Assembly (NCBI GenBank): GCA_031426915.1
Contig: JASJPB010000007.1
Coordinates: 2,996-66,995 of the forward strand
Source: Sulfuricellaceae bacterium
GTDB lineage: Bacteria > Pseudomonadota > Gammaproteobacteria > Burkholderiales > Sulfuricellaceae
Direction of reading: 5' to 3'
Length of the DNA: 64,000 bases
The position numbers were made by a program, and so were the translations under genes. A model generated the notes under the pieces. The model saw only the letters and a list, made by a program, of their open reading frames with translations, made no database searches and was not told where the DNA came from. Shown here piece by piece: positions 9,238-63,751 of this stretch (position 1 is the stretch's first letter; each line of letters opens with the position of its first letter).

Positions 9238-9297
9238 GTAGGAGCGAGCTTGCTCGCGATAGCAACCCGTGATGATCGCGAGCAAGCTCGCTCCTAC
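9238..9297. repeat. GTAG-type REP doublet (hairpin)
   Basis: GTAGGAGCGAGCTTGCTCGCGAT...ATCGCGAGCAAGCTCGCTCCTAC, 23-bp perfect arms; identical arms at 63371-63427. Confidence 0.9.
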
Positions 9298-17275: not shown

Positions 17276-17287
17276 CCGCGGCACTGA

Positions 17288-17310
17288 CCCGCCGGGTTGG
17301 TCCCGGCGGG
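17288..17310. other. GC-rich intergenic hairpin
   Basis: CCCGCCGGG-TTGGT-CCCGGCGGG between the giant gene and the first cupredoxin gene; no U-tract on the + strand. Confidence 0.5.
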
Positions 17311-17329
17311 CCGAAAAAAGGAGAAGATC

Positions 17330-18532: not shown

Positions 18533-18554
18533 TCCGCGAAACGAGGAGGACGAC

Positions 18555-19850: not shown

Positions 19851-19867
19851 ACCAGGGAGCAGCAATC

Positions 19868-21817: not shown

Positions 21818-21860
21818 CGGCGGAGGCCGGCTCCCGTGATCCGGGGGCCGGCCAGCCTGA

Positions 21861-22415: not shown

Positions 22416-22432
22416 CCAAGGGGAGGCGAGCC

Positions 22433-24760: not shown

Positions 24761-24791
24761 GTTCGAAAGCCACCATGAAGGGAGAAACCGA

Positions 24792-25469: not shown

Positions 25470-25479
25470 GACGCGCGCC

Positions 25480-30195: not shown

Positions 30196-31116
30196 GGGTC
30201 AGGTCTTGACATCACGCTTTTCACCGTTCGTCCTTGATTACCTTACTCACAGTTGAATAATGTACCCCTGCTTCGCGCGCGATGGCCGCCATTGTGTAGC
30301 CGAACTCCTGGTAGGCGCGACGCATTGCCTCATCACGCGCCACCTTGTCCGCGCAGACATGCTTCGGAAACAGTTGCTCAAGGTTCGGCCGATGCAACTG
30401 CCGCTGGGCGCGTGGCACCTCGGTCAGTTCGGCCTTGTCTTCCAGCAAAGGCCGCATCTGCTCCGCAAACGCGTCCGACCCGAGCAGTATCTGTCCTTTC
30501 AGATCGGCCCACGGAGAAGGATGGCTTTTCCCTTCCGCCACGAAAGCGGCATAGCATCGTTGTGCCTCCGCCCGCGTCGGGGAAAATTGAGCGAGGAGCC
30601 AATCGGTGGACAGCCAGACAGGACGATCCAACTGTCCAACCGTCGCCGGATAGCTGCTCCAGGGGTAACTTGAAATCGACTTGACCATCTTGGCGCGGAC
30701 GGGGTTCAGGACGATATAACGGGCAAGCTCAAGGAGGTAACTGTCGCGATCCACCAGAATTGCCTTGAATCGACCCTGGAACACATGGCCCACGCGTCCG
30801 TGGCGACGGTTGAAACGCTGGGTATAGACCCCGTTCAACTGGCGCATGCCGAGCGACAGATTAGCGTCGGGGGTTTCGATCAGTAGGTGGTAATGGTTGC
30901 CCATCAGGCAGTAGGCATGGCAAACCCAGCCGTATCGCCCGATCACTTGCGCCAACACGTCCAGAAAAAGGTGGCGGTCCTCGTCATCAAGACAGATGTC
31001 CTGCCGTGCGTTGCCGCGTGCGGTGACATGGTAGAGCGCACCGGGAAATTCAAGTCGGAGGGGGCGGGCCATCGAGGTAGTCTAGTCGGTTTGAGTGGCA
31101 TGTCAAGACCTGACCC
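30196..31116. mobile_element. Y1 (HUH) transposase unit bounded by 17-bp inverted repeats
   Basis: GGGTCAGGTCTTGACAT at 30196-30212 and ATGTCAAGACCTGACCC at 31100-31116. Confidence 0.8.
30221..31072 (-). CDS. RAYT-like Y1 transposase with C-terminal HTH
   Basis: MARPLRLEFPGALYHVTARGN, AYCLMGNHYHLL (HUH), GHVFQGRF, RYIVLNPVRA. Confidence 0.92.
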   Translation of the reverse strand: MARPLRLEFPGALYHVTARGNARQDICLDDEDRHLFLDVLAQVIGRYGWVCHAYCLMGNHYHLLIETPDANLSLGMRQLNGVYTQRFNRRHGRVGHVFQGRFKAILVDRDSYLLELARYIVLNPVRAKMVKSISSYPWSSYPATVGQLDRPVWLSTDWLLAQFSPTRAEAQRCYAAFVAEGKSHPSPWADLKGQILLGSDAFAEQMRPLLEDKAELTEVPRAQRQLHRPNLEQLFPKHVCADKVARDEAMRRAYQEFGYTMAAIAREAGVHYSTVSKVIKDER

Positions 31117-47565: not shown

Positions 47566-49596
47566 ATGCCGCGCGATCTTCCCATCGGGAACGGTACCTT
47601 GCTCGCCGCTCATGATTTCGATTACCGGATACGCGATTTTTATTATCCGCGTGTCGGTAAGGAAAACCATGCGCTCGGTCACCCGTGGCGTTTCGGCGTG
47701 TGGCTGGAGGGCGAGTTTTCCTGGCTCGGGCGTGAAAACTGGAGAATTCAGCGCGATTACGTTTCCGGTGCGCTGGTCACCTCGGTAACGGCGTCCCATG
47801 CGCGCTTGCCGCTACGCCTGCATTTCAACGACGCCATCGACTATGAAAAAAACATCCTGGTGCGCAGGGTGCGGGTGCAAAACCTTTCCCGCCGCGCGCT
47901 GGAGCCGCGCCTGTTCTTCCACACCGACATCAACGCGCTGGAAAACGAGACCGGGGACACGGTTTTTTTCGACCCCAAGAATGCCTGTCTGATCCACTAC
48001 AAGGGTCCGCGCTATTTCCTCATGTGTTGCGCCACCGAAACCACGCTCGGCGTCACGCATTTTGCCACCGGCACCAAGCGCCATCGCGGCCTGGAAGGAA
48101 CCTGGCGCGATGCGGAAGACGGCGAGCTGAGCGGCAACCCGATTGCCCAGGGGGCGGTGGACTCGGTGATCGGCATGCATCTTCAACTTGAACCCGGCGC
48201 GGAAGCGGCGTGCCATTACTGGATGGCGGTGGGCGAGAGCTATCACGAGGTCGAGCAACTGCATCGGCTGGTCACCCAGATCGGCGCGGAGCGTCTGATC
48301 GAGCGCAATATCGATTATTGGCGCCACTGGGTTTCCGCCGGGGAACGCGACTTCGGCGCATTGCCTGCGCTGCTGGTGGAGTGTTACCGGCGCAGTCTGC
48401 TCATTCTGCGCACCCAGATCGATCATGGCGGGGCGGTGATCGCCGCCAACGATACCGACATCCGCCAGTTCAACCAGGATACCTACAGCTATATGTGGCC
48501 GCGCGACGGCGCCATCGTCGCCCAGGCGCTGGACCGCGCCGGCTTCGGCAGCCTGAGCCGGCGCTTCCTCGAATTCTGTACCCAGAAGGCGGTCAACTAC
48601 AATTATTCCGCCAGTATTCTGGCCGAGACCGGCTTCCTGATGCACAAGTACAATCCGGACGGTTCCGTGGGCAGTTCCTGGCAACCCTGGCTGGAAAACG
48701 AGGAAATGGTGTTGCCGATCCAGGAAGACGAAACCGCGCTGGTGATCTGGGCGATCTGGAACCATTACCTGATCCACCGCGACATCGAGGCCATCCGGCC
48801 CTTCTACAGTCCGTTCGTGGAACGGGCCGCCGACTTCCTGCTGGAGTTCCGCGACGAGAAAACCGGGCTGCCGCTGCCTTCCTTCGACCTGTGGGAGGAG
48901 CGGCGCGGCGTGTTCACCTATACCACCGCAACCGTGATCGGCGGGCTGAAGGCGGCCGCCAGCCTGGCTGCCCTGTTCCAGGAGGAGGAGCGCGCCAGCG
49001 CTTGGCTGAGCGGCGCGCTGGCGGTCCGGGCAGCGCTCGACCAGCATCTCTACTGTCCGCGCGAAGGGCGTTTCGCGCGCGGCATCCTGTTCGAGGATGG
49101 CCTCCAGACCAGGGACGCTACCGTCGACGCCAGCCTGCTGGGGCTGGTGATTTTCGGCGGCTACGACCCCCGCGACGAGCGGGTGGCGAGCACCATCCGC
49201 GCGGTCGAGCAGCGCTTGTGGCTGAAAACGGGCAGCGGTGGACTGGCGCGTTATGAAGGCGACGATTACCAGCGCATGGTGCAGCGCAAGGATGTGCCAG
49301 GCAATCCCTGGGTGGTGTCCACGCTGTGGCTGGCGCAGTGCCGCATCGCGGCGGCGCGCGACCGGCGCGAGCTGGATCTGGCCTTGCCGCTGCTGATGTG
49401 GGCGGCGGAGCGGGCGCTTGCGTCCGGGGTGCTGCCGGAACAGGTGCATCCGGAAAGCGGCGAGTTTCTGTCGGTCTCTCCGCTGACCTGGAGCCATGGC
49501 ACGCTGGTGGCGGCGGTGCTGGATTACATCGCGAAAGCGCAAATGCTGGGCAGCCCGCAGCCGCAGCTTGCCGTGGCCGAAATGGACAGGAGGTGA
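47566..49596 (+). CDS. Glycoside hydrolase family 15
   Basis: GAVIAAND, YSYMWPRDG, QEDET, DLWEERRG, GLARYEGDDY, LPEQV, SPLTWSH. Confidence 0.92.
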   Translation: MPRDLPIGNGTLLAAHDFDYRIRDFYYPRVGKENHALGHPWRFGVWLEGEFSWLGRENWRIQRDYVSGALVTSVTASHARLPLRLHFNDAIDYEKNILVRRVRVQNLSRRALEPRLFFHTDINALENETGDTVFFDPKNACLIHYKGPRYFLMCCATETTLGVTHFATGTKRHRGLEGTWRDAEDGELSGNPIAQGAVDSVIGMHLQLEPGAEAACHYWMAVGESYHEVEQLHRLVTQIGAERLIERNIDYWRHWVSAGERDFGALPALLVECYRRSLLILRTQIDHGGAVIAANDTDIRQFNQDTYSYMWPRDGAIVAQALDRAGFGSLSRRFLEFCTQKAVNYNYSASILAETGFLMHKYNPDGSVGSSWQPWLENEEMVLPIQEDETALVIWAIWNHYLIHRDIEAIRPFYSPFVERAADFLLEFRDEKTGLPLPSFDLWEERRGVFTYTTATVIGGLKAAASLAALFQEEERASAWLSGALAVRAALDQHLYCPREGRFARGILFEDGLQTRDATVDASLLGLVIFGGYDPRDERVASTIRAVEQRLWLKTGSGGLARYEGDDYQRMVQRKDVPGNPWVVSTLWLAQCRIAAARDRRELDLALPLLMWAAERALASGVLPEQVHPESGEFLSVSPLTWSHGTLVAAVLDYIAKAQMLGSPQPQLAVAEMDRR

Positions 49597-49600
49597 CGAC

Positions 49601-50887
49601 ATGGCGGACCCGAATTACGGAGCAGTGATTCCGCCCGAATTCGATGACGCGTCGCGCAACCTGCGCCTGGCGTTCCTCAAGTTCGACTCGCGCGACGTGG
49701 AATTACTGCACGATCTGGCCGGTTTGTTCCGGGAACGCAAGATGGAGATCGCCGAGCGTTTCTACGAGCACATGCTTGCCTTCGAGGATACCCGCAAGGT
49801 TTTCAGGGACGAGGCGATGATCCAGCGCCTCAAGCAGGCCCAGGCCAATTATCTGATGGAGGCGGTGGAGGGGCCTTACGATGCGGCCTATTTCGAGCGC
49901 CGCTGGCGCATCGGCTACATCCACAATGCCATCCTGGTGGAACCCCACTGGTTCATCGGCGCGTTCCAGCTCTATCACCGCATCCTTTACCCGATCATCC
50001 TGGAGCGTTACCGGGACGATGCGCAAGCGGTGGTGGACCACATCCTGGCGCTGGACAAGATCATGAACCTGGACCTGCAACTCGGCATCCAGAGCTATTA
50101 CGTTCATTACGAGGGCACCATGGACAAGCTGCGCGAGCTGAACCTGCGCATCGAGGCCGCGAGCACCGCCAAGAGCCAGTTCCTGGCCAACATGTCGCAC
50201 GAGTTCCGCACCCCGCTCAACGCCATCATCGGCTTCACCGAGGTGTTGCAGGACCGCATCCCCGGCGACCTCAATGCCGACCAGGAGGAATACCTGGGCG
50301 ACATACACGATGCCGGTCAGTTGCTGTTGCGCCTGATCAACGACGTGCTCGATCTGTCCAAGGTGGAAGCGGGCCGCCTGGAGCTGTTCTACGAAACTTT
50401 CCCCATCGCCCAGACCGCGCGCGAGACCATCACCACGCTGCGCGGCGCGGCGGAGAAAAAGGGCTTGTCTATCCAGGGAATCCTGCCGCCCGACCTCGGG
50501 CTGATCACGGCGGACCAGATCCGTTTCAAGCAGATCCTGTTCAACCTGTTGTCGAATGCGGTGAAGTTCACCGACAGCGGCGCCATCACGCTTTCCGCCG
50601 CGCTGGAAAACGATGGCCTGCACCTGTCGGTGGCCGATACCGGGATCGGTATCCGCGAGCAGGACATGAACCGCATCTTCGTCGAATTCAGCCAGGTGGA
50701 TGATTCACACGCGCGCCGCCATGAAGGGACCGGGCTCGGGCTGGCGCTATCCAAGCGCCTGGCGGAGGCGCACGGCGGGCGTATCTGGGTGGAGAGCACA
50801 TTCGGCGTGGGCAGCGTGTTTCACGTTCTGTTGCCGCTGCGTCCCGCCGAATCCAGGGCCAAGGCCGTCCAGGAGGAAATGAAATGA
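49601..50887 (+). CDS. Globin-coupled sensor histidine kinase
   Basis: N-terminal sensor globin (RWRIGYIHNAI); FLANMSHEFRTPLNAI; NLLSNAVKF, DTGIGI, GTGLGL. Confidence 0.92.
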   Translation: MADPNYGAVIPPEFDDASRNLRLAFLKFDSRDVELLHDLAGLFRERKMEIAERFYEHMLAFEDTRKVFRDEAMIQRLKQAQANYLMEAVEGPYDAAYFERRWRIGYIHNAILVEPHWFIGAFQLYHRILYPIILERYRDDAQAVVDHILALDKIMNLDLQLGIQSYYVHYEGTMDKLRELNLRIEAASTAKSQFLANMSHEFRTPLNAIIGFTEVLQDRIPGDLNADQEEYLGDIHDAGQLLLRLINDVLDLSKVEAGRLELFYETFPIAQTARETITTLRGAAEKKGLSIQGILPPDLGLITADQIRFKQILFNLLSNAVKFTDSGAITLSAALENDGLHLSVADTGIGIREQDMNRIFVEFSQVDDSHARRHEGTGLGLALSKRLAEAHGGRIWVESTFGVGSVFHVLLPLRPAESRAKAVQEEMK

Positions 50888-51705
50888 GGCACGAGGGCTT
50901 GGACAGCAGCTTGTGCGGTCCGGTCGCAGGGCGCTGCCCGGACCCGCTCAAAACCATCCTGGTGGTGGAAGACAACCCCCAGGCGGCCAAGCTGCTGTCC
51001 CTTTACCTGATCCAGGCGGGCTACCTGGTCATGGTCGCATCCAACGGCTGCCAGGCGGTGCAACTGGCTACGCAATGCCACCCGCTGGCGATCACGCTGG
51101 ACATATTGCTGCCCGACCAGGACGGCTGGCAGGTGCTGTCCGAACTCAAGGCCTCGCCCCTTACCCGCGACATCCCGGTGGTGATCGTGTCGGTGCTGGA
51201 TCGCCAGGCGCTCGGTTTCAGGCTGGGCGCCTCGGACTATCTGGTCAAGCCGGTGGAACGCGCCGACTTGCTGCATGCGCTGCGGCGCTGCATTCCGCGC
51301 GAGGGCGAGAACGGCGTGTGCCACAAGGTGATGGTGGTGCATACCAACCCGGAGGAATTGAACCTGCTGGCCATGATCCTGGCGCAGGAAAACTACCAGG
51401 TGATCCAGGCCCTGGGTTCGGAGGAGGCGGCCAGCCTGGCCAAATATGCCCATCCCGATCTGGTGGTGACCAATCTGGTGGCCGGCGGAATGGATTTTTT
51501 CGCCCTGCTGGAAGGCCTCAGGGCGGCACCGGAGACCGCGACCATCCCGGTCCTGGCCCTGACGCCGTGGGTTTTCGGCGCCAGGCAGGGCGCGCCGGTG
51601 GAGGAGGGGATCGAGTTTGTGCTGATGCGGGAAAACGAACTGGTCGAGGAACGCCTGCTGTCTGCCGTTACCCTGCTGTTCAAGCGGGAAAAGCAGGCCG
51701 GCTGA
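50884..51705 (+). CDS. Tandem receiver protein (REC + pseudo-REC)
   Basis: Domain 1 has VEDN and ITLDILLP; domain 2 has Asn at the phospho-Asp position (LVVTNLV). Confidence 0.88.
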   Translation: MRHEGLDSSLCGPVAGRCPDPLKTILVVEDNPQAAKLLSLYLIQAGYLVMVASNGCQAVQLATQCHPLAITLDILLPDQDGWQVLSELKASPLTRDIPVVIVSVLDRQALGFRLGASDYLVKPVERADLLHALRRCIPREGENGVCHKVMVVHTNPEELNLLAMILAQENYQVIQALGSEEAASLAKYAHPDLVVTNLVAGGMDFFALLEGLRAAPETATIPVLALTPWVFGARQGAPVEEGIEFVLMRENELVEERLLSAVTLLFKREKQAG

Positions 51706-51723
51706 GGAGGGCGGGGAAATATT

Positions 51724-52122
51724 ATGGAACAGCAAGCGAAGACCATCCTGCTGGTCGAGGATGATGAGACCAACCGCAAGCTGGTGCGCGTCGTACTCGC
51801 CGGCAGGCACTACCTGATCCGCGAGGCGGGAAGCGTGGAGGAGGCCCTGGCGTTGCTCAAGGACGGCAAGCCGGACCTGATGCTGTTCGACATCCGTCTC
51901 GGCGACGGCAGCGGCCTGGACCTGATCCGCAGCGTGCGAGCCGACCCGTCCTTCGACGCGGTGCCGGCGGTGGCCATCACGGCCCAGGCCATGAAGGACG
52001 ATGAAGGGCGCTTCCTTGCCGCCGGTTTCGACGCTTATATCAGCAAGCCGGTCGATACCCGGCGTCTGCCGGAGGTGGTGGAGCGTTTTATCCGCGAAGG
52101 CAGGAGGGCCGGTCATGCTTGA
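51724..52122 (+). CDS. Single-domain response regulator (DivK-like)
   Basis: LLVEDDETN, LMLFDIRL, AITAQAM, YISKP. Confidence 0.93.
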   Translation: MEQQAKTILLVEDDETNRKLVRVVLAGRHYLIREAGSVEEALALLKDGKPDLMLFDIRLGDGSGLDLIRSVRADPSFDAVPAVAITAQAMKDDEGRFLAAGFDAYISKPVDTRRLPEVVERFIREGRRAGHA

Positions 52123-52834
52123 CGGGATTTCATCGGCCGGGGCGACGGTGCTGGTGGTCGACGACGCGCCGCCCAACGTGAAACTGCTGCGCCTGATCCT
52201 GAAGGATGCCGGCTACCGCGTGCTGGAAGCCGCCAGCGGTCCCGAAGCGCTGGCAACGCTGCGCAGCGAAAAACCCGACGTCATGGTGCTGGACGTGCGC
52301 ATGCCCGGCATGACGGGCTACGACGTTTGCCGCGAAATCCGTCACGATGCCGAGTTCGCCACGCTGCCGGTAATCATGGTGACCGCCCTGTCGCTGCCGG
52401 AAGAGCGCATCAAGGGCATCGAGGCCGGCGCCACCGATTTCATCACCAAGCCTTTCAACAAGAAGGAGTTGCTGGCGCGTATCCAGCTCAGTCTGGCCCT
52501 GGCGAAAAGCGGCAGGAACGCTATCGTTCCCCAACTCCCCGGTGCGGTGGTGATTGCCGACGCGGACTGGACAGTGCTTTGCATGTCGCCCCTGGCCGCG
52601 ATTGTGCTGGGCATTTCCGCGAACGGCATCAGCGGGCTGGATTTCACCCAGCTTGTCGACCAGGCGGAAAAAGACCGCCTCTTCTCCGGCGAACATCCCG
52701 AGTTGTTTCACGTTTTCAATGCCGCCACGGGAAATGTCCTCGATGCCCGGCTAACGCTGGTTATCGGTCCCGGCGGGAATTTGCTGTTGCGCGCGATCGC
52801 TTTGAGCGAGCCGCTTCGCCCCGCTTCGGGATGA
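52115..52834 (+). CDS. Response regulator (REC + short PAS-like domain)
   Basis: LVVDDAPPN, MVLDVRMPG, FITKPF; C-terminal GAVVIADADWTVLCMSP. Confidence 0.85.
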   Translation: MLDGISSAGATVLVVDDAPPNVKLLRLILKDAGYRVLEAASGPEALATLRSEKPDVMVLDVRMPGMTGYDVCREIRHDAEFATLPVIMVTALSLPEERIKGIEAGATDFITKPFNKKELLARIQLSLALAKSGRNAIVPQLPGAVVIADADWTVLCMSPLAAIVLGISANGISGLDFTQLVDQAEKDRLFSGEHPELFHVFNAATGNVLDARLTLVIGPGGNLLLRAIALSEPLRPASG

Positions 52835-54012: not shown

Positions 54013-54321
54013 ATGAAAAGCAAATTACTTTTGGCTTTGGCTTCATTGATTATCGGAATGGCAAGTTTCGGCGCGAATAGCGTTTATGCCGATATGACTA
54101 CGGGCATGCCAACCCAGACACAATCCAGGTTCTGCTCACACGAGGCCTGGAATGTATTCGAGCCGAATTGTGCCGGCAACATTACCGGGCGCGAAGGCAA
54201 GGCGGCATACGGTGAGCCTCGCGAGGTAAAAATGGAGACTACCGGATCGCGTGCTCTATTTTGTTCCACGGAAGGTTTGAACCTTCTCGAACCGAACTGC
54301 GTTGGCGATATACGCAAATAG
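54013..54321 (+). CDS. Small secreted protein with two Cys-pair repeats
   Basis: RBS AAGGAG; signal peptide; FCSHEAWNVFEPNCAG and FCSTEGLNLLEPNCVG. Confidence 0.7.
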   Translation: MKSKLLLALASLIIGMASFGANSVYADMTTGMPTQTQSRFCSHEAWNVFEPNCAGNITGREGKAAYGEPREVKMETTGSRALFCSTEGLNLLEPNCVGDIRK

Positions 54322-54438: not shown

Positions 54439-54469
54439 GAACCAGAACGCAGGAAATGCGTTCTGGTTC
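54439..54469. other. Perfect 13-bp hairpin upstream of the cox operon
   Basis: GAACCAGAACGCA-GGAAA-TGCGTTCTGGTTC. Confidence 0.55.
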
Positions 54470-54660: not shown

Positions 54661-55827
54661 ATGCCGGTACTATCGCCGATCACAATGCTGCCGGGTGTGC
54701 TGGCTGTGCTCTTTTCCATGCCGGCGCGGGCGGACCTGGCCTGGAATTTCCCCACGCCGGTCACGCCGCTGGCCCTCGACACGCTCCAGGTCCACAACAA
54801 ATTCATGGTGATCACGCTGGTCATCTTCGTGGTGGTGTTCGCCATCATGATCTATTCCATTTTCCGCCATCGCAAGAGCCAGGGCTATGAGGCGGCCAAG
54901 TTCACCGGACCCGGCACGGCGGCGCAGGTTTTCTGGACCACGGTGCCGTTCCTGATCCTGGTGTTCATCGATTTCGTCCTGATGGGCATTCCCGCCTATC
55001 ACAGCGTGCTGATGATGGAGGACACGCGCACCGACGCCGACATGGTGGTCAAAGTCACCGGCAGCCAGTGGAAGTGGCAGTACGAGTACCCCGGCGAGGG
55101 CATCAAGTTCGTCAGCGCGCTGGCCACCTCCCAGCAGCAGATCGACAATCAGGCCGCGAAAGGCGAGCACTACCTGCTGGAGGTGGATAACCCCCTGGTG
55201 CTGCCGGTGGGCAAGAAAGTGCGCTTCCTGCTGACGTCCACCGATGTGATTCACACCTGGTGGGTGCCCCAGTTCGGCGTCAAGCGCGATGCCATTCCCG
55301 GCTTCATCCGCGAGACCTGGGCGCGCATCGAGCAGCCCGGCGTGTATCGCGGCCAATGCGCCGAACTGTGCGGCAAGGGCCACGGTTTCATGCCGGTGGT
55401 GGTGCAGGCACTGCCCGAGGCGGAGTACCGCCACTGGCTGGCGCAAAAGAAATCCGGCCAGGCCGCTCTGGCGGCCAGCGCGGAGCGGGTATGGACGCGC
55501 GAGGAACTGGTCAGGCACGGCCAGGAGGTGTACGAAAAAGTCTGCGCCGCCTGTCACCAGCCCGCCGGCCAGGGGCTGCCCGGCACGTTCCCGGCGCTGG
55601 CCGGCAGCAAGATCGTCAACGGGCCGATGCTGGACAAGGACGGCCGTCTGGTGAAGGACGGCCACCTCGACCGGGTGATGAACGGCAAGCCAGGCACCGC
55701 CATGCAGGCGTTCAAGGCCACCCTGAGCGACGTCGACATCGCCGCGGTGACGACCTACGAGCGCAATGCATTCGGCAACAAGATGGGCGACCTGGTGCAG
55801 CCTGCCCAGGTGAAGACCTTGCGGTGA
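54661..55827 (+). CDS. coxB: Cytochrome c oxidase subunit II with C-terminal cytochrome c
   Basis: VIHTWW, CAELCGKGHGFM (CuA); CAACH. Confidence 0.97.
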   Translation: MPVLSPITMLPGVLAVLFSMPARADLAWNFPTPVTPLALDTLQVHNKFMVITLVIFVVVFAIMIYSIFRHRKSQGYEAAKFTGPGTAAQVFWTTVPFLILVFIDFVLMGIPAYHSVLMMEDTRTDADMVVKVTGSQWKWQYEYPGEGIKFVSALATSQQQIDNQAAKGEHYLLEVDNPLVLPVGKKVRFLLTSTDVIHTWWVPQFGVKRDAIPGFIRETWARIEQPGVYRGQCAELCGKGHGFMPVVVQALPEAEYRHWLAQKKSGQAALAASAERVWTREELVRHGQEVYEKVCAACHQPAGQGLPGTFPALAGSKIVNGPMLDKDGRLVKDGHLDRVMNGKPGTAMQAFKATLSDVDIAAVTTYERNAFGNKMGDLVQPAQVKTLR

Positions 55828-55839
55828 GGAGATGGCACG

Positions 55840-57432
55840 ATGACAAGCGCTGAAATGGCACTGACGCACGGCGAAGCCGGCCATCACAAGGGTCTGGCGC
55901 GCTGGCTGTTCACCACCAACCACAAGGACATCGGCACCATGTATCTGGTGTTTTCCCTGCTGATGTTCTTCGTCGGCGGGGGAATGATCATGCTGGTGCG
56001 GGTGGAACTGTTCCAGCCCGGCTTGCAGATCATGCAGCCGGAGCTGTTCAACCAGCTCATCGGCGTGCACGCGCTGGTGATGATCTTCATGGCGCTGATG
56101 CCGGCCGCGACCGGCTTCGCCAACTGGATGATCCCGCTCATGATCGGCGCGCCGGACATGGCTCTGCCGCGCCTCAACAACTGGAGCTTCTGGCTGCTGC
56201 CGCCGGCCGCCACCCTGTTGCTGATGCCGTTCGCGCTGGCGCTGTTCGGCGTGGGCAACGGCGCGGTCGCCACCGGCTGGACCTTCTACGCGCCGCTTTC
56301 GGTGCAGGAGGGGATGGGGACCGATTTCGCGATCTTCGCCATCCACCTGCTGGGCGTGTCCTCGGTGATGGGCTCGATCAACATCATCGTCACCATCTTC
56401 AACCTGCGTGCGCCCGGCATGACCATGATGAAACTGCCGCTGTTCGCCTGGGGCTGGCTGCTGACCGCCTTCATGCTGGTGGCGGCGATCCCGGTGCTGG
56501 CCGGCGCGGTCACCATGCTGCTCACCGACCGCCATTTCGGCACCCATTTCTTCAATGCCGCCGGCGGCGGCGATCCCATCCTGTTCCAGCACCTGTTCTG
56601 GTTCTTCGGCCATCCCGAGGTCTACATCGTGCTGTTCCCGGTGTGGGGCTTCACCCCCCATATCCTTTCCACCTTCGCGCGCAAGCCGATCTACGGCTAC
56701 CGCGCCCAGGTCTACGCATTCTGGGTCATCGGCGTGCTGTCGGTGGTGGTGTGGGGCCATCACATCATGACCACCGGGATGGCCACATCCACCTTGCTGT
56801 ATTTCATGTACAGCACCATGGCGATTTCGCTGCCGCTGTCGGTGCTGTTCTTCTGCTGGATCGCCACGGCCTGGCGCGGCGCCATGAGCTTCGAGGCGCC
56901 GATGCTGTTCGCGCTGGGCATGATCGTGCTGTTCGGCATCGGCGGTCTGACCGGCCTGGTGCTGGCCGACGCGGCGGCGGACGCGCAGTACCACCATTCC
57001 TACTTCGTGGTGGCGCACTTCCACTACACCCTGTTCGCCGGGGGCATCATGGGCATGATGGCGGGCACCTATTACTGGCTACCCAAGATGACCGGGCACA
57101 TGTACGACGAAACCCTGGCGCAATGGCATTTCTGGCTCACCGCCATCGCCTTCAACCTCACCTTCATCCCCCAGTTCTTCCTCGGACTGGCGGGCATGCC
57201 GCGCCGCATCCCGGACTACGCGCTGCAATTCTCCGAGTTCAATATGTTGTCCAGCATTGGCGCCTTCATCCTCGGCGCGGCCCAACTGCTGTTCCTCTAC
57301 GTGGTTGTAAAATGCATTCGCGGCGGACCCCCGGCACCGGCCCAGGTGTGGGAGGGCGCCGAGGGGCTGGAATGGACCTTGCCGTCCCCGCCGCCGCGTC
57401 ACACCTTCCATACCCAGCCGCATGTCGAGTGA
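55840..57432 (+). CDS. coxA: Heme-copper oxidase subunit I, A1-type motif, K-pathway residues substituted
   Basis: HKDIG, GHPEVY, WGHH, HFHY, GMPRR. Confidence 0.97.
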   Translation: MTSAEMALTHGEAGHHKGLARWLFTTNHKDIGTMYLVFSLLMFFVGGGMIMLVRVELFQPGLQIMQPELFNQLIGVHALVMIFMALMPAATGFANWMIPLMIGAPDMALPRLNNWSFWLLPPAATLLLMPFALALFGVGNGAVATGWTFYAPLSVQEGMGTDFAIFAIHLLGVSSVMGSINIIVTIFNLRAPGMTMMKLPLFAWGWLLTAFMLVAAIPVLAGAVTMLLTDRHFGTHFFNAAGGGDPILFQHLFWFFGHPEVYIVLFPVWGFTPHILSTFARKPIYGYRAQVYAFWVIGVLSVVVWGHHIMTTGMATSTLLYFMYSTMAISLPLSVLFFCWIATAWRGAMSFEAPMLFALGMIVLFGIGGLTGLVLADAAADAQYHHSYFVVAHFHYTLFAGGIMGMMAGTYYWLPKMTGHMYDETLAQWHFWLTAIAFNLTFIPQFFLGLAGMPRRIPDYALQFSEFNMLSSIGAFILGAAQLLFLYVVVKCIRGGPPAPAQVWEGAEGLEWTLPSPPPRHTFHTQPHVE

Positions 57433-57439
57433 GGCTGCC

Positions 57440-58009
57440 ATGGACACCCGCAACATGCCGTCCTCGCCCAGGGCCAACCGCCGCCTCGCCGTCAGGCTGG
57501 GGGTGGCGGCACTCGCCATGTTCGGCTTCGGCTTCGCGCTGGTGCCGCTGTACGACGTGTTTTGCCAGGTGACCGGATTCAACGGCAAGACCGGTGGGGC
57601 GGTGCAGACGGCCGGCAACAGCGTCGATGCTTCGCGCTGGGTGATGGTGGAATTCAACGGCGACGTCATGCCCGGCCTGCCGTGGCGCTTCGAGCCGCGC
57701 CAGCACAGGCTGCGGGTGCATCCCGGCGAGCGCGTGACGGCCTGGTTCACGGTAAAAAATGTGGCCGACCGGCCCCTCATCGGGCGGGCGGTGCCCAGCG
57801 TGACGCCCGCAATTGCCGCCAGCCATTTCAGGAAAATCGAGTGCTTCTGCTTCAGCCAGCAGCGCCTGGCGGCGGGGGAGCAAAAGGAAATGCCGGTGAC
57901 CTTCGTGGTGGCCCGTGAATTGCCCGCCGAGGTGGGCGTGCTGACGCTTTCCTACGCCTTCTTCCCCAACGAAAAAACAGTCCTGGCCCTGGGAGGTGAC
58001 AAGATATGA
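57440..58009 (+). CDS. ctaG: Cox11/CtaG copper chaperone
   Basis: PLYDVFCQVTG, KIECFCF. Confidence 0.95.
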   Translation: MDTRNMPSSPRANRRLAVRLGVAALAMFGFGFALVPLYDVFCQVTGFNGKTGGAVQTAGNSVDASRWVMVEFNGDVMPGLPWRFEPRQHRLRVHPGERVTAWFTVKNVADRPLIGRAVPSVTPAIAASHFRKIECFCFSQQRLAAGEQKEMPVTFVVARELPAEVGVLTLSYAFFPNEKTVLALGGDKI

Positions 58010-58845
58010 GCGAATTGCGCGAGGACTATTACGTGCCCCATTCCAGCCCCTATCCCGCGCTGCTTTCGGGGGGACTGTTCCTGCTGGCGCTCGGCTTCAT
58101 CCTGCAGATGAATGGCCAGTCCCCGGGCCGGTGGCTGATGCTGGCCGGGGCGGGGGTGGTGGTGTTCGTCCTGTTCGGCTGGTTCGGTACCGTGGTGACG
58201 GAGAACCAGGGCAGGAAATTCCACGACTGGGAAGACCGCTCTTTCCGCTGGGGCATGGTCTGGTTCATTGCCTCGGAAGTCATGTTCTTTGCCGCCTTTT
58301 TCGGCGCCCTGTATTACCTGCGCAACGTGTCCGTCCCGGAGCTGGGGCAGACCGAGCTGCTGTGGCCGGGCTACCAGGGAACCTGGCCCACCAGCGGCCC
58401 CGCCGGCAAGGCGTTCACCCCCATGGCGGCGTGGGGCATCCCGGCGCTGAACACCATGATCCTTCTCACCTCCGGCGCCACCGTCACCTGGGCGCACTGG
58501 GCGCTGCTCAAGAACCGTCGCGGCCAGCTCATCGCCGGGCTGGCCATGACCGTCGCGCTGGGCTGCCTGTTTCTCGGCTTCCAGGCCCATGAATACGCCG
58601 ACGCCTACGGCCAGCTCGGGCTGACCCTGGGCGCGGGCGTGTACGGCGCCACCTTCTTCATGCTCACCGGTTTTCACGGCCTCCACGTCACCATCGGCGC
58701 CATCGGCCTGACGGCGGTGCTGGCGCGATCGATCAAGGGGCACTTCACCCCGGAAGACCATTTCGGTTTCGAGGGCGTGGCCTGGTACTGGCACTTCGTG
58801 GACGTGGTGTGGCTGGTGCTGTTCGTGTTCGTGTATTGGTTCTAA
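58006..58845 (+). CDS. coxC: Cytochrome c oxidase subunit III
   Basis: ASEVMFFAAFF, TGFHGLHV, YWHFVDVVW. Confidence 0.97.
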   Translation: MSELREDYYVPHSSPYPALLSGGLFLLALGFILQMNGQSPGRWLMLAGAGVVVFVLFGWFGTVVTENQGRKFHDWEDRSFRWGMVWFIASEVMFFAAFFGALYYLRNVSVPELGQTELLWPGYQGTWPTSGPAGKAFTPMAAWGIPALNTMILLTSGATVTWAHWALLKNRRGQLIAGLAMTVALGCLFLGFQAHEYADAYGQLGLTLGAGVYGATFFMLTGFHGLHVTIGAIGLTAVLARSIKGHFTPEDHFGFEGVAWYWHFVDVVWLVLFVFVYWF

Positions 58846-58860: not shown

Positions 58861-59055
58861 TCAGAAGGGGCGGATCAGGCCGAAGTAATAGCCCGCCATG
58901 AGCACGGCGAACAGCAAGGCGGAAAGGGAAATGCGCAGAGTCAGCGCCCTGGCGGCGCGCTCGCTGCGGCCCTTGTCGCGAGCGATGAAGATGAGGGCGG
59001 AAAACAGGCTGGCGATGACGAGGGCAAGCAGGATGAGCACGACGATCTTGAACAT
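58861..59055 (-). CDS. Twin-TM small protein (DUF2909/HIG1-like)
   Basis: Two TM helices; RALTLRISLS; usual antisense position after coxC. Confidence 0.85.
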   Translation of the reverse strand: MFKIVVLILLALVIASLFSALIFIARDKGRSERAARALTLRISLSALLFAVLMAGYYFGLIRPF

Positions 59056-59110: not shown

Positions 59111-59830
59111 ATGAAATTTTCTGTCATGACGACGGCCTTGCGCTTCCGTCCCAAACTGGTGCCGACCCTGGCCACGCTGATGCTGTTGCCGCTGCTGGTG
59201 CAGTTCGGCTTGTGGCAGTGGCACAAGGCGGATGCCAGGCGGCAGTTGCAGCAGCAGATGGATACGCAGGCCAAGTCGCCGCCGCTGATGCTCGGTCCGC
59301 ACCTGGTTTCCGGCGCGGATTTGCGCCACAAGCGGGTGACGCTACGGGGCCGCTATGAGGCCGGGCATCAGATCCTGCTGGACAACCAGGCATACGGGGC
59401 ACAAGTCGGCTATCACGTGGTGACGCCGCTGCGCATCGCGGGCGGCGCGGTGAGGGTTCTTGTCAATCGCGGCTGGGTGCCGCTGGGCAGGAGCCGCGAC
59501 GTGTTGCCCGAGGTGGCTCCGCCCGAGGGCATGGTGGAAGTGAGCGGGACGGTGTGGGAGCCGGCGCGACGCGAGCTGTCCGCCGCGAATCAGGCCGGTC
59601 CGGTGTGGCAGGCGCTCGACCTGGCCGCTTATGGCGCGCAAGTCCCTTACCCGGTGCAGCCGTTCGCCATTCGCCTCGACCCGGCCTCGGCCGGCTGTTA
59701 CGTGTGCCAGTGGCCGCGCGTGGAGGACAAGGTGGCAATGCACCTGGGCTATGCCGCCCAGTGGTTCGGCATGGCCGGGGTGCTGGTGGGGTTTTACGTT
59801 TACGCCAGTTTGGCGAGGACTGATGGCTGA
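59111..59830 (+). CDS. SURF1-family protein
   Basis: FGLWQ, LDNQ, VLVNRGWVP, HLGYAAQWF. Confidence 0.93.
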   Translation: MKFSVMTTALRFRPKLVPTLATLMLLPLLVQFGLWQWHKADARRQLQQQMDTQAKSPPLMLGPHLVSGADLRHKRVTLRGRYEAGHQILLDNQAYGAQVGYHVVTPLRIAGGAVRVLVNRGWVPLGRSRDVLPEVAPPEGMVEVSGTVWEPARRELSAANQAGPVWQALDLAAYGAQVPYPVQPFAIRLDPASAGCYVCQWPRVEDKVAMHLGYAAQWFGMAGVLVGFYVYASLARTDG

Positions 59831-59840: not shown

Positions 59841-60416
59841 ATGGAGATGAAATCGAAAAGTACCTGGCCTGTTCTGATCCTGCTCGGGGCGCTGTTTGTC
59901 CTGCCGGCGGCGATTGCGGGGGGGATTCTGCTTTCCGGCTGGCGTCCGGCGCCGTCCGCAGCGCATGGCAGGCTGATCTCGCCGCCCTTGCCGCTTGCCG
60001 GGGCGGTGCTGGGGGAGTCCGGGGGCCGGGCGGTCAGGCTGGAAGATTTCCGCGAGCGCTGGACGCTGCTGTATTTCGGCCCGGCGGATTGCGGCGCCGA
60101 TTGCCGCAACCAGTTGTATGCCATGCGCCAGGTGCACCTCGCCCAGGGGCGCGGGCAGGGAAGGGTGCAACGGGTATTCGTGGCTAGGGGCGAGCTTTCG
60201 GCCGAGGCAAAAAGCCGCCTGTCCGACGCGTATCCGGGCATGAGCGTGGTGGCGCAGCGCGGCGATCTCTCCAGGCGGTGGCCGGAGCAGGGCAAGGGAA
60301 GGATTTTCCTGGTCGACCCCATCGGCAACCTGGTCATGCAATACGAGCCCAACGCTGACGCCAGCGGCATGCGTAGCGACCTGGCCCGCTTACTCGCGTA
60401 CTCGTGGGTGGGATGA
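59841..60416 (+). CDS. SCO-like thioredoxin-fold protein of cox clusters
   Basis: N-terminal TM; WTLLYFGPADCGADC; IFLVDPIGNLVMQY. Confidence 0.8.
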   Translation: MEMKSKSTWPVLILLGALFVLPAAIAGGILLSGWRPAPSAAHGRLISPPLPLAGAVLGESGGRAVRLEDFRERWTLLYFGPADCGADCRNQLYAMRQVHLAQGRGQGRVQRVFVARGELSAEAKSRLSDAYPGMSVVAQRGDLSRRWPEQGKGRIFLVDPIGNLVMQYEPNADASGMRSDLARLLAYSWVG

Positions 60417-61378
60417 TGCTATCCCTGACTCGCCTGATCATCGTGACGGCGGCGCTGGCCTGGCTGGTGGTGATGCTGGGGGCCTATGTGCGACTCTCCG
60501 ATGCGGGGCTCGGCTGCCCCGACTGGCCCGGTTGCTACGGCCAACTGGGCGCCCCTTCCAGCGCGCAGGCCGTGCGGGCGGCCGAGGCGGCTTTCCCCGC
60601 GCAGCCGGTGGAAGCGCACAAGGCCTGGAAGGAAATGGCTCATCGTTATGCCGCGGGCACGCTGGGGCTGCTGATCCTGTTCATCTTTCTCCGCGCCTGG
60701 CGCGAAAAAGCCGAGATAAGGTGGCCGGCCGCCGCGCTCCTGGCGCTGGTGCTGTTCCAGGCCCTGCTCGGGCGCTGGACCGTGACCGAACTGCTGCGGC
60801 CCGCCATCGTCAGCGCCCACCTGCTGGGCGGCATGGCCACCCTGGCGCTGCTGGCGTGGCTGGGGCTGGCGCGGCGCGGCGCACGGCCGCATGCGGAAGG
60901 CGTGGGCGGGTTGCGTCTCTGGGCTGGCGCCGCGCTGCTCGTGGTTGCCATGCAAATCGCGCTGGGCGGCTGGACCAGTTCGCACAATGCGGCCCTGATT
61001 TGCGGTGCGGGGCTGAGCTGCCGAGGCGAATGGGTGCCGGCCATGGACTTTGCCGCGGCATTCCTCCCTGATAGCACTGCGGTGTCCCTCGAAGCCCTCA
61101 CCGCCATCCACTGGAGCCACCGCCTCGGTGCACTGGCGGTGGCGTGCGTGGTGGCACCGCTTGCCCTGGTGCTGCTGCGGAGCAGGGGATTGCAAAGCCT
61201 CGGCTGGCTGCTGCTGGCGCTGCTGGCATTGCAGATTGGCCTCGGCCTGGCCAACGTCGCGTTCGGACTGCCGCTGGCCACGGCCGTGGCGCACAACGCG
61301 GTGGCGGCACTGCTGCTCGCCGCGCTGGTGATGGTGAATCATGATTTGTATGATTTGAGAGAAAGGAGCACGCCATGA
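60413..61378 (+). CDS. ctaA: Heme A synthase (COX15/CtaA)
   Basis: [33 protein letters not shown]. Confidence 0.94.
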
Positions 61379-62271
61379 GCACGCTAACTTTGCCGTCTTC
61401 CCGTCCGCTCGCGGACAAGTTGCGCGAGTTCTATGCGCTGTGCAAGCCGCGCGTCACCGGACTGATCGTGTTTACCGCGGTCATCGGCATGGCGCTTGCC
61501 GCGCCGGGCATGGTGCCGCTTCGGGCATTGCTGGCGGGAACGGCGGGCATCGCCATGGCGGCGGGCGCGGCGGCTGCCCTGAACTGCCTGATCGAGCGCA
61601 AGATCGACGCGCTCATGGCGCGTACCCACAACCGGCCCCTCGCCGCCGGGCGGCTGCTTCCCCATGAGGCGCTGGCCTTCGTCGTGCTGCTCGGCGGCAG
61701 CGGTTTGGCGCTGCTGTATTTCCTGGTCAACCCACTTACGATGTACCTCACGCTCGCCACCTTTGTCGGCTACGCCGTGGTTTACACCGTGTTCCTCAAG
61801 CCGGCCACGCCGCTCAACATCGTGATTGGCGGCGCGGCGGGCGCCATGCCGCCGGTGCTGGGCTGGGCGGCGGTAAGCGGAGGCGTGTCGGGAGAAGCGC
61901 TGATCCTGTTCCTCATCATCTTCGCCTGGACCCCACCCCATTTCTGGGCGCTGGCCCTGTATCGGACCACCGACTATGCCAAGGCCGGATTGCCCATGCT
62001 GCCGGTCACCCACGGCAGCGAATTCACCCGCCTGCACATCGTGCTCTATACCGTCCTGCTCGCCACCATCACCCTCATGCCCTACGGCCACGGCATGAGC
62101 GGCCCGCTCTACCTGGGTGCGGCGGTGCTGCTGGACATCGGGTTCCTGTGGCTGGCGGTACGGCTCTACCTGGCCTACAGCGATGCGCTCGCCCAGCGCA
62201 CCTTCCGCTACTCGATCACCTACCTGACCCTGCTGTTCGCCGCGCTGCTGGTCGATCATTACCTGGCCTGA
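61375..62271 (+). CDS. cyoE: Protoheme IX farnesyltransferase
   Basis: [32 protein letters not shown]. Confidence 0.96.
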
Positions 62272-62287: not shown

Positions 62288-62905
62288 ATGAAACGTGAAA
62301 CGGTTTTCTACTGGGTGCTGGGCCTGCTGATCGCGCTGGGGCTGGGCTGCACCGACAGGGGCGGCCCGTCCGGCCCGGCTTACCGGGCCAGCGACGTGAG
62401 CGGCGCCGCCTTCGGCCGGGATTTCCGCCTCGCCGACCACAACGGGCGCATCAGGACGCTGGGCGATTTTCGCGGCAAGGTGGTGTTGCTCAGCTTCGGC
62501 TACACCCGCTGCCCGGATGTCTGCCCCACCACCCTGGCCGAACTGGCGGGCCTGATGGGGCGTCTGGGAGGAGAGGCTGAGCGGGTGCAGGTGCTGTTCG
62601 TGACCCTGGACCCGGAGCGCGACACGCCCGCCCAACTGGCCAAATACATCCCATTTTTTCACCCAGGCTTCCTCGGCCTGCGCGGCGATGCGGCAGCCAC
62701 CGCCGCCACCGCCGGCGAGTTTCGCGTGGCCTATCAGAAGCAGGATACGGGCTCCGCCGCCGGCTACAGCCTGGACCACTCCACCGGGATCTATGCCTTC
62801 GACCCCGACGGCCGCTTGCGCCTGCGCATCGACTACAACTCGCCGCTGGACGACGTGGTTCACGATGTCAGGCTGCTGCTGGGGGGAAAGGCGAGGGCAT
62901 CATGA
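62288..62905 (+). CDS. SCO1/SenC family protein
   Basis: FGYTRCPDVCP, VTLDPERD, YSLDHS. Confidence 0.94.
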   Translation: MKRETVFYWVLGLLIALGLGCTDRGGPSGPAYRASDVSGAAFGRDFRLADHNGRIRTLGDFRGKVVLLSFGYTRCPDVCPTTLAELAGLMGRLGGEAERVQVLFVTLDPERDTPAQLAKYIPFFHPGFLGLRGDAAATAATAGEFRVAYQKQDTGSAAGYSLDHSTGIYAFDPDGRLRLRIDYNSPLDDVVHDVRLLLGGKARAS

Positions 62906-63466: not shown

Positions 63467-63751
63467 TTAATTTAATGCTGCCTGCACAGCTTCCGGCGCA
63501 CGCTTGATTACATTGAGCAGAACCAGTGCTGCTCCTTGCGGTGTGCGATCTCCTCGCTCCCAGTGGCGCAAGGTTGCTACGGAAAACCCAAAGCGTGCGG
63601 CGAATTGCTCCTGTGTCATGCCCATGTGCTGGCGCAATTCAGAAACGTTTACCGTTTCCGGTTTGTATATTTTCACGGCAAGCTTCTTGCCCTTGGCGTG
63701 TGCCACGGCTTCGTTCAATCCGCGCGAAATGCTGTCAAAAGTCGTTCCCAT
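63467..63751 (-). CDS. XRE antitoxin (HigA/NadS-like)
   Basis: LRQHMGMTQEQFAARFGFSVATLRHWERG. Confidence 0.9.
   Translation of the reverse strand: MGTTFDSISRGLNEAVAHAKGKKLAVKIYKPETVNVSELRQHMGMTQEQFAARFGFSVATLRHWERGDRTPQGAALVLLNVIKRAPEAVQAALN

Follow-up and report, generated by a model that had tools for sequence, protein, structure and literature searches.

Introduction

The K pathway is regarded as textbook-essential in A-type heme-copper oxidases, and variants in which K362 (Rhodobacter sphaeroides numbering, as used throughout) has been replaced are dead in turnover. The B-family (ba3) and C-family (cbb3) enzymes rely on a single proton-input channel, an analogue of the K pathway that is devoid of the Lys residue, and have no D channel. 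Within family A, Degli Esposti et al. have described COX1 and COX2 proteins without a K-channel in acidophilic Fe(II) oxidizers (Acidithiobacillus, its relatives and Thioclava); these enzymes are of the A2 type and form the deepest branch of the A family (bioRxiv 10.1101/2020.03.01.968255). Repeated and independent losses of the K-channel have been inferred within this family (PMC8239418). An "unconventional aa3-type" oxidase encoded by the coxBA11C genes of Ferrigenium straubiae has been reported to possess COX I and COX II subunits without a K-channel, a trait whose consequence "remains unclear" (bioRxiv 10.64898/2026.01.22.701106). Here, we report on a coxBA locus present on a 64,000-bp stretch of DNA from a Sulfuricellaceae bacterium (GenBank assembly GCA_031426915.1, contig JASJPB010000007.1, positions 2,996 to 66,995; hereafter referred to as the window), in which coxB and coxA head a complete cytochrome oxidase operon with all assembly genes intact. 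Loss of the K-channel in A-family oxidases has been documented previously, and the enzyme encoded in the window is a new member of a group that has been noticed but not studied.

Results

Both Subunits of the Window Oxidase Lack the Residues of the K Pathway

CoxA is subunit I of an A1-type heme-copper oxidase, as is evident from its GHPEVY motif. We aligned CoxA and CoxB by means of phmmer (HMMER) with the solved protein chains of R. sphaeroides (1M56_A) and Paracoccus denitrificans (1AR1_A/B) from the PDB. The alignment of CoxA with 1M56_A is gap-free through helices VI to X, from the His pair of helix VII to the His pair of helix X. Helix VIII of CoxA, TMAISLPLSVLFFCW (amino acids 326–340; nucleotides 56815–56859), falls onto TMVIAVPTGIKIFSW of the R. 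sphaeroides protein, and this pairing yields L333, L336 and C339 at the positions of T359, K362 and S365, respectively. In helix VI, the segment GFTPHILSTFA is aligned with GIVSHVIATFA, which puts P273 in the place of S299. The spacing of the residues is the same in the two proteins: Y288 lies 11 positions from residue 299, H334 lies 28 positions from residue 362, and the latter lies 57 positions from H419. Because the inter-ligand spacing is identical, the alignment of CoxA is unambiguous; no register places Lys or Thr at positions 359 or 362, and misalignment as the cause of the K-pathway loss is thereby ruled out. When the columns of K-less and canonical CoxA proteins were compared for a relocated Lys, no clade-specific Lys or Arg was found in the transmembrane regions.

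The partner subunit is altered as well. The entrance segment TAAQVFWT of CoxB aligns with TPIEVIWT of P. denitrificans and SPLEIAWT of R. sphaeroides, so that E101 is represented by Q89 (nucleotides 54925–54927). The equivalent of H96, which is part of a metal-binding site at the entrance of the R. sphaeroides enzyme, is gone, and a stretch of the type F(T/S)GP with a one-residue insertion is found instead. Hence, the window oxidase carries L333, L336, P273 and Q89 of subunit II where the K pathway of A-family enzymes has Thr, Lys, Ser and Glu, and no protonatable or hydrogen-bonding side chain is present along the canonical K route from the entrance in subunit II up to position 359. The preliminary description of this DNA had assigned the same four substitutions from a manual alignment and had named a Lys or Thr in helix VIII as the finding that would speak against it; the ungapped HMMER alignments to solved oxidases bear the four substitutions out, and they place neither residue at positions 359 and 362 of that helix.

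The remainder of the enzyme is preserved. CoxA contains the six His ligands (H102, H284, H333, H334, H419, H421), of which two serve the low-spin heme, one the high-spin heme and three CuB, the cross-link Tyr Y288 of helix VI, located one turn from the CuB His, and Glu260 as the equivalent of E286 within the GHPEVY motif at amino acids 257–262. Its D pathway is whole (D132, N121, N139, N207, S200/S201) and ends at E286, as in the A1 subtype with its XGHPEV motif. R481/R482 are present in CoxA, and CoxB contains the CuA motif CAELCGKGHGFM together with the upstream His. The claim that the D-pathway residues, the metal ligands, the cross-link Tyr, the Arg pair, CuA and the assembly genes are intact is thus supported by our alignments and by Pfam matches. 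The active site and the D pathway match those of an O2-reducing, proton-pumping A1 oxidase.

A Conserved Lineage of Beta- and Gammaproteobacterial Oxidases Shares the Loss of the K Pathway

We compiled a 203-sequence CoxA alignment from database proteins and genome loci (numbered L in the following), to which the R. sphaeroides protein was added for numbering. The genome loci were obtained from 600 listed pattern matches that are biased toward the window's own peptides, and the clade is under-sampled. L, V or I at position 359 combined with L, M or I at position 362 was found in 127 of the 203 proteins; the remaining 76 have T and K. Among the best 120 database homologues of the window CoxA, P[LV]A[VI]LFFCW takes the place of the canonical PTG[VI]K[VI]F[NS]W in the majority of proteins with an identity of about 64% or more. 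In a separate best-hit set, consisting of 119 relatives of the canonical CoxA of OM43, T and K are present in all 119. The nearest relative of the window protein is encoded by a Sulfuricella sp. metagenome-assembled genome (MAG; 90% identity), Sulfuricella denitrificans skB26 falls into a cluster at about 80% identity, and an exact-protein look-up of the window CoxA returned no identical record.

Of the K-less CoxA proteins, 118 form a main clade and nine a minor one. In a neighbor-joining bootstrap analysis from which the signature columns had been removed, each of these clades was monophyletic in 100 of 100 replicates, and the K-less proteins together with the K-containing beta- and gammaproteobacterial sequences excluded the alphaproteobacterial ones, again in 100 of 100; sisterhood of the two K-less clades was recovered in 54 of 100 replicates. 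The tree contained no sequences of acidophiles of the Acidithiobacillus type. Because the alphaproteobacterial, R. sphaeroides and mitochondrial enzymes carry the Lys residue, the loss of K is derived. The window CoxA is placed within the main clade (100% bootstrap) and bears every signature residue: L/V/I359, L/M362, S356, C365, Q316, F472, N/H412 and D403 in CoxA, combined with Q at E101, the F(T/S)GP entrance and an "ID" insertion in CoxB.

K-less enzymes are present in the cultured strains S. denitrificans skB26, Sulfuricella sp. T08, Methylotenera mobilis JLW8, Methylophilus sp. QUAN and Rhodoferax lithotrophicus MIZ03, and further records stem from Candidatus Methylopumilus universalis, Azonexus, Zoogloea, Sulfurisoma, Denitratisoma, Ideonella and Candidatus Accumulibacter. 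Collectively, these enzymes are a large and conserved lineage of beta- and gammaproteobacteria. Members of the minor clade (L018, L037, L052, L061, L063, L065, L073, L017, L043) occur in sulfur-oxidizing Gammaproteobacteria, namely a lucinid-clam symbiont, Thiothrix and Piscirickettsiaceae MAGs; they have V/I359, M362 and a canonical Mg site, and most of them possess the unusual CuA motif CAE[LI]CGTWHS[RK]M.

The two subunits have changed in concert. Gln is found at the E101 position in 12 of 14 CoxB partners of main-clade proteins, the other two, from Methylophilaceae, retaining Glu, and all seven CoxB partners from the minor clade are without E101 and have N, Q, R, T or H there; Glu is present in 58 of 58 canonical partners. 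In CoxA, Pro occupies position 299 in 107 of the 127 K-less proteins, while Ser is found in 76 of 76 canonical ones. The proposal that the coordinated loss across two subunits took place under selection is upheld, since the same substitutions are fixed in the clades of 118 and nine sequences and E101 of CoxB was lost alongside. As far as side chains can tell, the canonical K proton-input pathway is closed, not merely damaged, in this lineage.

The residues H102, H284, H333, H334, H419, H421, Y288, E286, D132, N121, N139, N207 and R481/R482 are kept in 126–127 of the 127 K-less sequences. A decaying or inactive oxidase, or an artefact of alignment or assembly, is therefore hardly credible as an explanation for the substitutions: the sole point in its favor is that K362 mutations inactivate the model enzymes, and it is countered by full-length reading frames with unaltered ligand spacing, by the recurrence of the same residues in 127 sequences that share as little as about 57% identity and stem in part from complete genomes of cultured strains, by the transcription of a clade member (see below), and by the detection of the window's own sequence in several independent metagenomes (groundwater, sediment and soil DNA data sets). 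When RNA data for the window's own organism were looked for among sequencing data, only DNA metagenomes contained the sequence.

Gained Polar Residues and Remodeling of the Mg Site

A column-by-column comparison of the main-clade CoxA proteins with their canonical relatives revealed that the K region has become bulkier and more hydrophobic (T359L/V, G360A, K362L/M, I363F, S299P). F363 is found in 116 of 118 proteins; A360 is present in 112 of 118, and the window enzyme has Ser334 at this position. Polar residues were gained nearby. A356S is found in 127 of 127 K-less proteins vs. five of 76 canonical ones, S/N365C in 118 of 118 main-clade members, and A351S is a further polar gain of the main clade. 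Position 316 is Gln in 117 of 118 main-clade proteins vs. Met in 76 of 76 canonical proteins, Tyr is present at position 311 in 103 of the 127 K-less proteins, and His at position 300 in 105 of them, a position that is variable among the canonical relatives. No intermediate sequences were found, and the signature is all-or-none apart from S299P. The high conservation of the replacement residues themselves indicates that a new arrangement is under constraint; drift or decay would not account for it.

These gains could be read as the parts of a rebuilt, Lys-free cytoplasmic analogue of the K pathway in a functional O2 reductase, consisting of H300, Y311, Q316 and C365 together with S356/S351 and bound waters. 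Such a route would resemble the Ser/Thr/Tyr-based single channels of the B- and C-family oxidases, and the high frequencies of H300, Y311, Q316, C365 and S356 given above speak for it. H300 corresponds to bovine H256, which is classically counted as a K-pathway residue. However, the middle of the path is bulkier and more hydrophobic (L/V359, A360, L/M362, F363, P299), a stretch of about two helical turns offers no polar side chain, and the entrance residues of subunit II were removed with no substitute acids. We consider a rebuilt cytoplasmic route unlikely.

The region of the Mg site is remodeled in the main clade, too. Of the Mg/Mn-site residues H411, D412 and E254 of subunit II, the window enzyme keeps the first and the last (H385 and E235) and has His386 in place of D412. 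At position 412, Asn is found in 74 of the 127 K-less proteins, His in 41 and Asp in nine, the latter making up the minor clade. D412 and H472 co-vary, both being kept in the minor clade and both being lost in the main clade, in which one sequence keeps H472. D403 is present in 118 of 118 main-clade proteins, and position 262 has changed to His in 105 of 118. Likewise, the Asp within the insertion near the periplasmic end of the second transmembrane helix of CoxB is found in 14 of 14 main-clade and seven of seven minor-clade partners, and the corresponding position is a gap in 58 of 58 canonical partners. Since the minor clade keeps D412 and H472 and has V403, the remodeling of the Mg site is not needed for the loss of K. 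This remodeling, the gained S351, S356, Q316, Y311 and C365, and the fixed H300 go beyond the preliminary description.

These changes also suggest a scheme of a functional O2 reductase whose K-type chemical protons would come from the periplasm by way of the remodeled region above the hemes (D403, H262, H/N412 and D104 of CoxB, then S351/T352/S356), as in cNOR, at the expense of a lower charge yield per O2. What speaks for this scheme is that acidic, His and hydroxyl residues were gained toward the periplasmic half, as placed by sequence position and the general fold of these oxidases: the presence of D403 in all and of H262 in most main-clade proteins, the exchange of D412 for N or H together with that of H472 for F, and the invariant CoxB Asp in 21 of 21 K-less vs. 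none of 58 canonical partners. It is at odds with the minor clade, which is K-less and has no D403, and proton uptake from the periplasm would be wasteful of energy; moreover, the proximity of the residues to each other is judged from their position in the sequence and from the general fold. Periplasmic uptake strikes us as improbable.

Substrate, Expression and Isoenzymes of the K-less Oxidases

The unchanged active site, the genes for heme A and Cu assembly, and the transcription of a clade member in situ make it probable that O2 is the substrate of the K-less enzyme, which is predicted to contain heme A from the presence of ctaA, ctaB and SURF1 in the operon. K362M enzymes retain peroxidase-type partial reactions, a fact that counts for an altered chemistry in which the enzyme would chiefly be a nitric oxide (NO) reductase, a cytochrome c peroxidase or a scavenger of H2O2. 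Denitrification or a habitat at the boundary of oxic and anoxic zones is common among the hosts (Sulfuricella, Ferrigenium, Azonexus, Denitratisoma, Methylotenera), and the low expression in Ferrigenium under microoxic conditions can be read in the same way (bioRxiv 10.64898/2026.01.22.701106). Yet the hallmarks of NO reductases (cNOR, qNOR, eNOR and others), i.e., loss of the Tyr residue and/or an altered CuB/FeB sphere with a conserved Glu, and the lack of a D channel, are not found in the window enzyme, which has an O2-reductase active site and an intact D pathway, and the His-Tyr pair, the three CuB His residues, E286, W280, G283 and V287 are unchanged in 126–127 of the 127 K-less proteins. 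The operon carries the Cu chaperone gene ctaG and heme A genes and no norQD-type factors, Ferrigenium possesses a separate eNOR that is highly expressed under denitrification (bioRxiv 10.64898/2026.01.22.701106), and the clade is also present in pelagic aerobic methylotrophs (L004). Because of the canonical active site, the Cu and heme A assembly genes and the separate eNOR of Ferrigenium, NO reductase or peroxidase chemistry is disfavored, and we assign it a very low probability. The suggestion in the preliminary description that the enzyme reduces H2O2 or NO is accordingly not sustained by the unchanged O2-reductase residues, by the assembly set for heme A, CuA and CuB, by the transcription of a clade member, or by the apparent role of the clade as the native oxidase of freshwater Methylophilaceae (see below).

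Evidence for transcription comes from the Accumulibacter member (L006), for which contigs of activated-sludge metatranscriptomes span coxB-coxA-ctaG-coxC with a word depth of about 20–48 vs. 0–10 in the flanks, a parameter that is only a rough measure of expression. Because these contigs cover coxBA, the K-less operon of this organism is transcribed in situ.

A Rhodocyclaceae MAG (CTSoil_117; L015) contains both a K-less and a canonical coxBA gene pair on the same strand within 19 kb and about 9 kb apart (coxA at about 7689–9281 and at about 16500–18100); the two CoxA proteins are 64% identical. Since both have been retained, the K-less and the canonical type can coexist as isoenzymes. In M. 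mobilis JLW8 (L081; CP001672.1, 574962–596554), ccoI, encoding a Cu ATPase, and ccoS are located upstream of the K-less cox genes, and ccoNOQP and ccoG downstream. In L083, ccoNOQP (cbb3) follows downstream of the K-less cox genes, beyond Rrf2-, SCO- and Crp/FNR-type genes. In both of these loci, the K-less cox operon directly adjoins the cbb3 genes, and the two together make up one respiratory-oxidase island.

The canonical CoxA of marine OM43 (L019, Methylophilaceae LSUCC0665; P0195–P0313) has its closest relatives outside of OM43 among gammaproteobacterial enzymes (83–86%). No canonical CoxA of Methylotenera, Methylophilus or Methylopumilus was found among the best 120 relatives of this protein, and the lack of canonical copies in that set suggests that freshwater Methylophilaceae have the K-less enzyme as their native A-family oxidase. 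The gammaproteobacterial affinity of the OM43 protein, set against the K-less type of the freshwater members, suggests that the oxidase was replaced or acquired by horizontal transfer at the freshwater-to-marine transition. Methylopumilus has been reported to be without a complete ccoNOP (cbb3) gene set (PMC11561045, 2024), and Ca. M. universalis (L004) possesses a K-less operon; together, these two observations hint that this obligately aerobic plankter relies on the K-less oxidase. The transcriptome and genomics papers on Methylophilaceae that we consulted contain no oxidase-specific detail on the K-less enzyme.

Gene Content of the Window

The features of the cox locus are compiled in Table 1. 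In CoxB, two N-terminal transmembrane helices and the CuA domain are followed by a mono-heme cytochrome c domain fused to the C-terminus; because of the CAACH motif of this domain, the enzyme is of the beta/gammaproteobacterial "caa3-like" build. The gene order from coxB to ctaB is conserved among relatives, including ctaG, SURF1, ctaA, ctaB and SCO.

Table 1. Features of the cox locus in the window (residue changes are given as canonical residue, in R. sphaeroides numbering, to window residue).
Feature	Position (nt)	Strand	Characteristics
coxB	54661–55827	+	388 amino acids; Pfam COX2_TM, COX2, Cytochrome_CBB3/Cytochrom_C; PDB 1AR1_B, E = 1.4e-54
CoxB, K-pathway entrance	54907–54927	+	Remodeled; FTGPGTAAQ in place of canonical FH-ExTxVE
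CoxB, insertion near periplasmic end of second transmembrane helix	54964–54975	+	FIDF; Asp104 at 54970–54972
CoxB, heme motif of cytochrome c domain	55543–55557	+	CAACH
coxA	55840–57432	+	530 amino acids; Pfam COX1, E = 3.4e-147; PDB 1M56_A, E = 1.7e-155
CoxA, helix VI	56656–56661	+	S299 to P273, followed by H274 (= H300, bovine H256)
CoxA, cytoplasmic start of helix VII	56692–56709	+	F311 to Y285; S/P315 to A289; M316 to Q290
CoxA, helix VIII STMAISLPLSVLFFCW	56812–56859	+	A351 to S325; T352 kept; A356 to S330; T359 to L333; G360 to S334; K362 to L336; I363 to F337; S/N365 to C339
CoxA, Mg-site region	56968–56997	+	D377 (= position 403) new; H385 (= H411) kept; D412 to H386
CoxA, position 472	57175–57177	+	H472 to F446
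ctaG/cox11	57422–58009	+	CuB insertion; Pfam CtaG_Cox11, E = 2.2e-50
coxC	58006–58845	+	Subunit III; Pfam COX3, E = 1.5e-60
64-amino-acid reading frame	58861–59055	-	Two transmembrane segments; located where DUF2909 occurs in the L081, L083 and L084 operons (likeness of position only)
SURF1	59111–59830	+	Heme a3 insertion; Pfam
Membrane-anchored thioredoxin/SCO-like protein	59841–60416	+	Weak SCO1-SenC match; PF26971 at orthologous position in relatives
ctaA/cox15	60404–61378	+	Heme A synthase; Pfam
ctaB	61375–62271	+	Heme O synthase; Pfam
SCO1/SenC	62288–62905	+	CuA chaperone; Pfam

Genes for a protoglobin (globin-coupled sensor) histidine kinase and three response-regulator receiver proteins (49496–52834, + strand) are located 2–5 kb upstream of coxB, and this cluster could be an O2/NO-sensing regulator of the cox operon. 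No FNR/ANR box was detected upstream of coxB; two matches with one mismatch each, located in other parts of the window, correspond to the chance level. A gene for a secreted protein of 102 amino acids with two internal Cys repeats (FCSHEAWNVFEPNCAGNI and FCSTEGLNLLEPNCVGDI) and no Pfam match (54013–54321, + strand) precedes coxB, and a perfect 12-bp inverted repeat (GAACCAGAACGC...GCGTTCTGGTTC; 54439–54469) is positioned between these two genes.

Farther away, a cluster on the + strand (12044–27126) encodes a surface-type protein of 1743 amino acids, three tandem multicopper-oxidase-like proteins (17297–21817), a subtilase with Big_9/cadherin repeats, a SCO1/SenC-like protein and a protein with a cytochrome c domain. 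This cluster perhaps represents an extracellular module for copper or metal oxidation. A HipA-like kinase toxin gene (27703–28959), an IS200-like (Y1) transposase gene (30221–31072) and an MqsA-like helix-turn-helix antitoxin gene (63467–63751), all on the - strand, represent mobile or toxin-antitoxin elements that flank the respiratory region.

Discussion

Our data indicate that a large and strongly conserved lineage has discarded the K pathway in both subunits and kept everything else. We tentatively favor the view that the product of the window locus is a functional cytochrome c:O2 oxidoreductase of the A1 type that contains heme A and has a single proton input, in which the K-type protons would most likely be delivered by the D pathway. 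In this lineage, Lys, Thr and their small neighbors on helix VIII have given way to Leu/Val/Met, Ala and Phe, the Ser of helix VI to Pro, and Glu101/His96 of subunit II have been removed. Because the catalytic center and the D pathway are untouched while K is closed, another proton route is needed, and the protons that normally enter via K during the re-reduction of heme a3/CuB, one or two in each cycle, would have to arrive by it. The intact D pathway via Glu286 would be the most likely route, which would make the enzyme an A-type oxidase with a single input channel; the clade's hydroxyls S351 and S356, positioned beside T352 in upper helix VIII, might then take over hydrogen bonding near the Tyr/farnesyl-OH end of the K path. 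As the K region looks deliberately sealed, supply through D only is the simplest reading, although we regard proton delivery exclusively via E286 as possible rather than probable.

Several points weigh against the favored view; among them, the inactive K362 mutants, the frequent co-occurrence with cbb3 and the low expression in Ferrigenium also argue against a robust role in respiration. K362 mutants of the R. sphaeroides and Escherichia coli enzymes are nearly inactive in turnover and are not rescued by the D pathway; D-only supply consequently needs adaptations, and none was identified near E286. The new polar residues at the cytoplasmic end (H300, Y311, Q316, C365) and those of the Mg site leave other routes open. 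Many hosts are microaerophiles or denitrifiers that possess cbb3, and one (L015) has a canonical coxBA pair as well, so that the K-less enzyme may be an auxiliary isoenzyme; our scan is blind to missing canonical paralogues. In F. straubiae, the K-less cox genes were the least expressed of those for three heme-copper enzymes during anoxic and microoxic growth (bioRxiv 10.64898/2026.01.22.701106). Our literature search found no biochemical characterization of any member of the K-less A1 clade. It also yielded no account of the extent of the clade or of the Mg-site remodeling, only the remark on Ferrigenium and the work of Degli Esposti et al. on acidophiles; hence, with regard to the question raised in the preliminary description of whether the clade had already been characterized, it has been noticed in the Ferrigenium preprint, and Degli Esposti et al. 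dealt with a different K-less lineage, but no characterization was found.

The far-reaching proposal that a widespread natural A1-type oxidase sustains respiration without any K-type input, with all eight protons per O2 entering via D or with the reductive-phase protons drawn from the periplasm via the Mg-site region, is conceivable and, in our view, somewhat doubtful. If it is true, two input channels could no longer be regarded as obligatory for the A family, and the enzyme would be a natural scaffold for dissecting the purpose of K. Should the K-less enzymes turn over normally, they would be nature's own experiment on how channels are used and gated and on the H+/e- stoichiometry. Environmentally important bacteria carry such enzymes, namely Accumulibacter and other wastewater Rhodocyclaceae, freshwater Methylophilaceae, Sulfuricella, Rhodoferax and, by literature report, Ferrigenium of the Gallionellaceae. 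For these organisms, genome-based assignments of a "low-affinity, high-efficiency aa3 oxidase" may have to be reconsidered. Cultured and sequenced hosts exist, so that the question is directly testable.

Comparison With Known Oxidases

The window enzyme resembles the canonical A1-type aa3/caa3 oxidases (R. sphaeroides 1M56/2GSM, P. denitrificans 1AR1/1QLE, and the Pseudomonas/Shewanella type with a CoxB-cytochrome c fusion) in its overall relatedness (about 50% identity to the solved subunit I and 60–67% to canonical beta- and gammaproteobacterial CoxA), in its ligands, GHPEVY motif, D pathway, CuA and subunit III, in the operon with its assembly genes, and in the cytochrome c domain fused to subunit II. 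It differs from them through the replacement of T359, K362, S299, E101(II), H96(II), D412 and H472, the new D403, the substitutions A356S, S365C, M316Q and F311Y, and the insertion in the second transmembrane helix of CoxB. The R. sphaeroides K362M, T359A and E101(II) mutants are affected at the same positions; however, these are single changes in a canonical scaffold and leave the enzyme nearly inactive, whereas about 35 changes are co-fixed in subunit I of the natural enzyme and further ones in its subunit II. Compared with ba3 and cbb3 oxidases, it would also be a single-channel enzyme if supplied by D only, but in the reverse sense, with D kept and K lost.

With the COX proteins of acidophiles, the window enzyme shares the exchange of Lys for a hydrophobic residue, the substituted Glu of subunit II and the retained D-channel. 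Unlike these A2-type representatives of the deepest branch, it is of the A1 type (Glu286) and stems from a neutrophilic group; instead of the A2 helix VI motif it has GHPEVY, and it clusters with the canonical beta- and gammaproteobacterial enzymes in our tree, which was built without acidophile sequences. The closest described system is coxBA11C of F. straubiae, which was compared by description only: this organism belongs to the same order, the Nitrosomonadales, its genes are arranged in the same order (coxB-coxA-cox11-coxC), and it also has cbb3. From the operon order and taxonomy, we infer that its enzyme falls into the same clade as that of the window. The preprint devotes a few sentences to it, with no clade definition, Mg-site changes or biochemistry (bioRxiv 10.64898/2026.01.22.701106).

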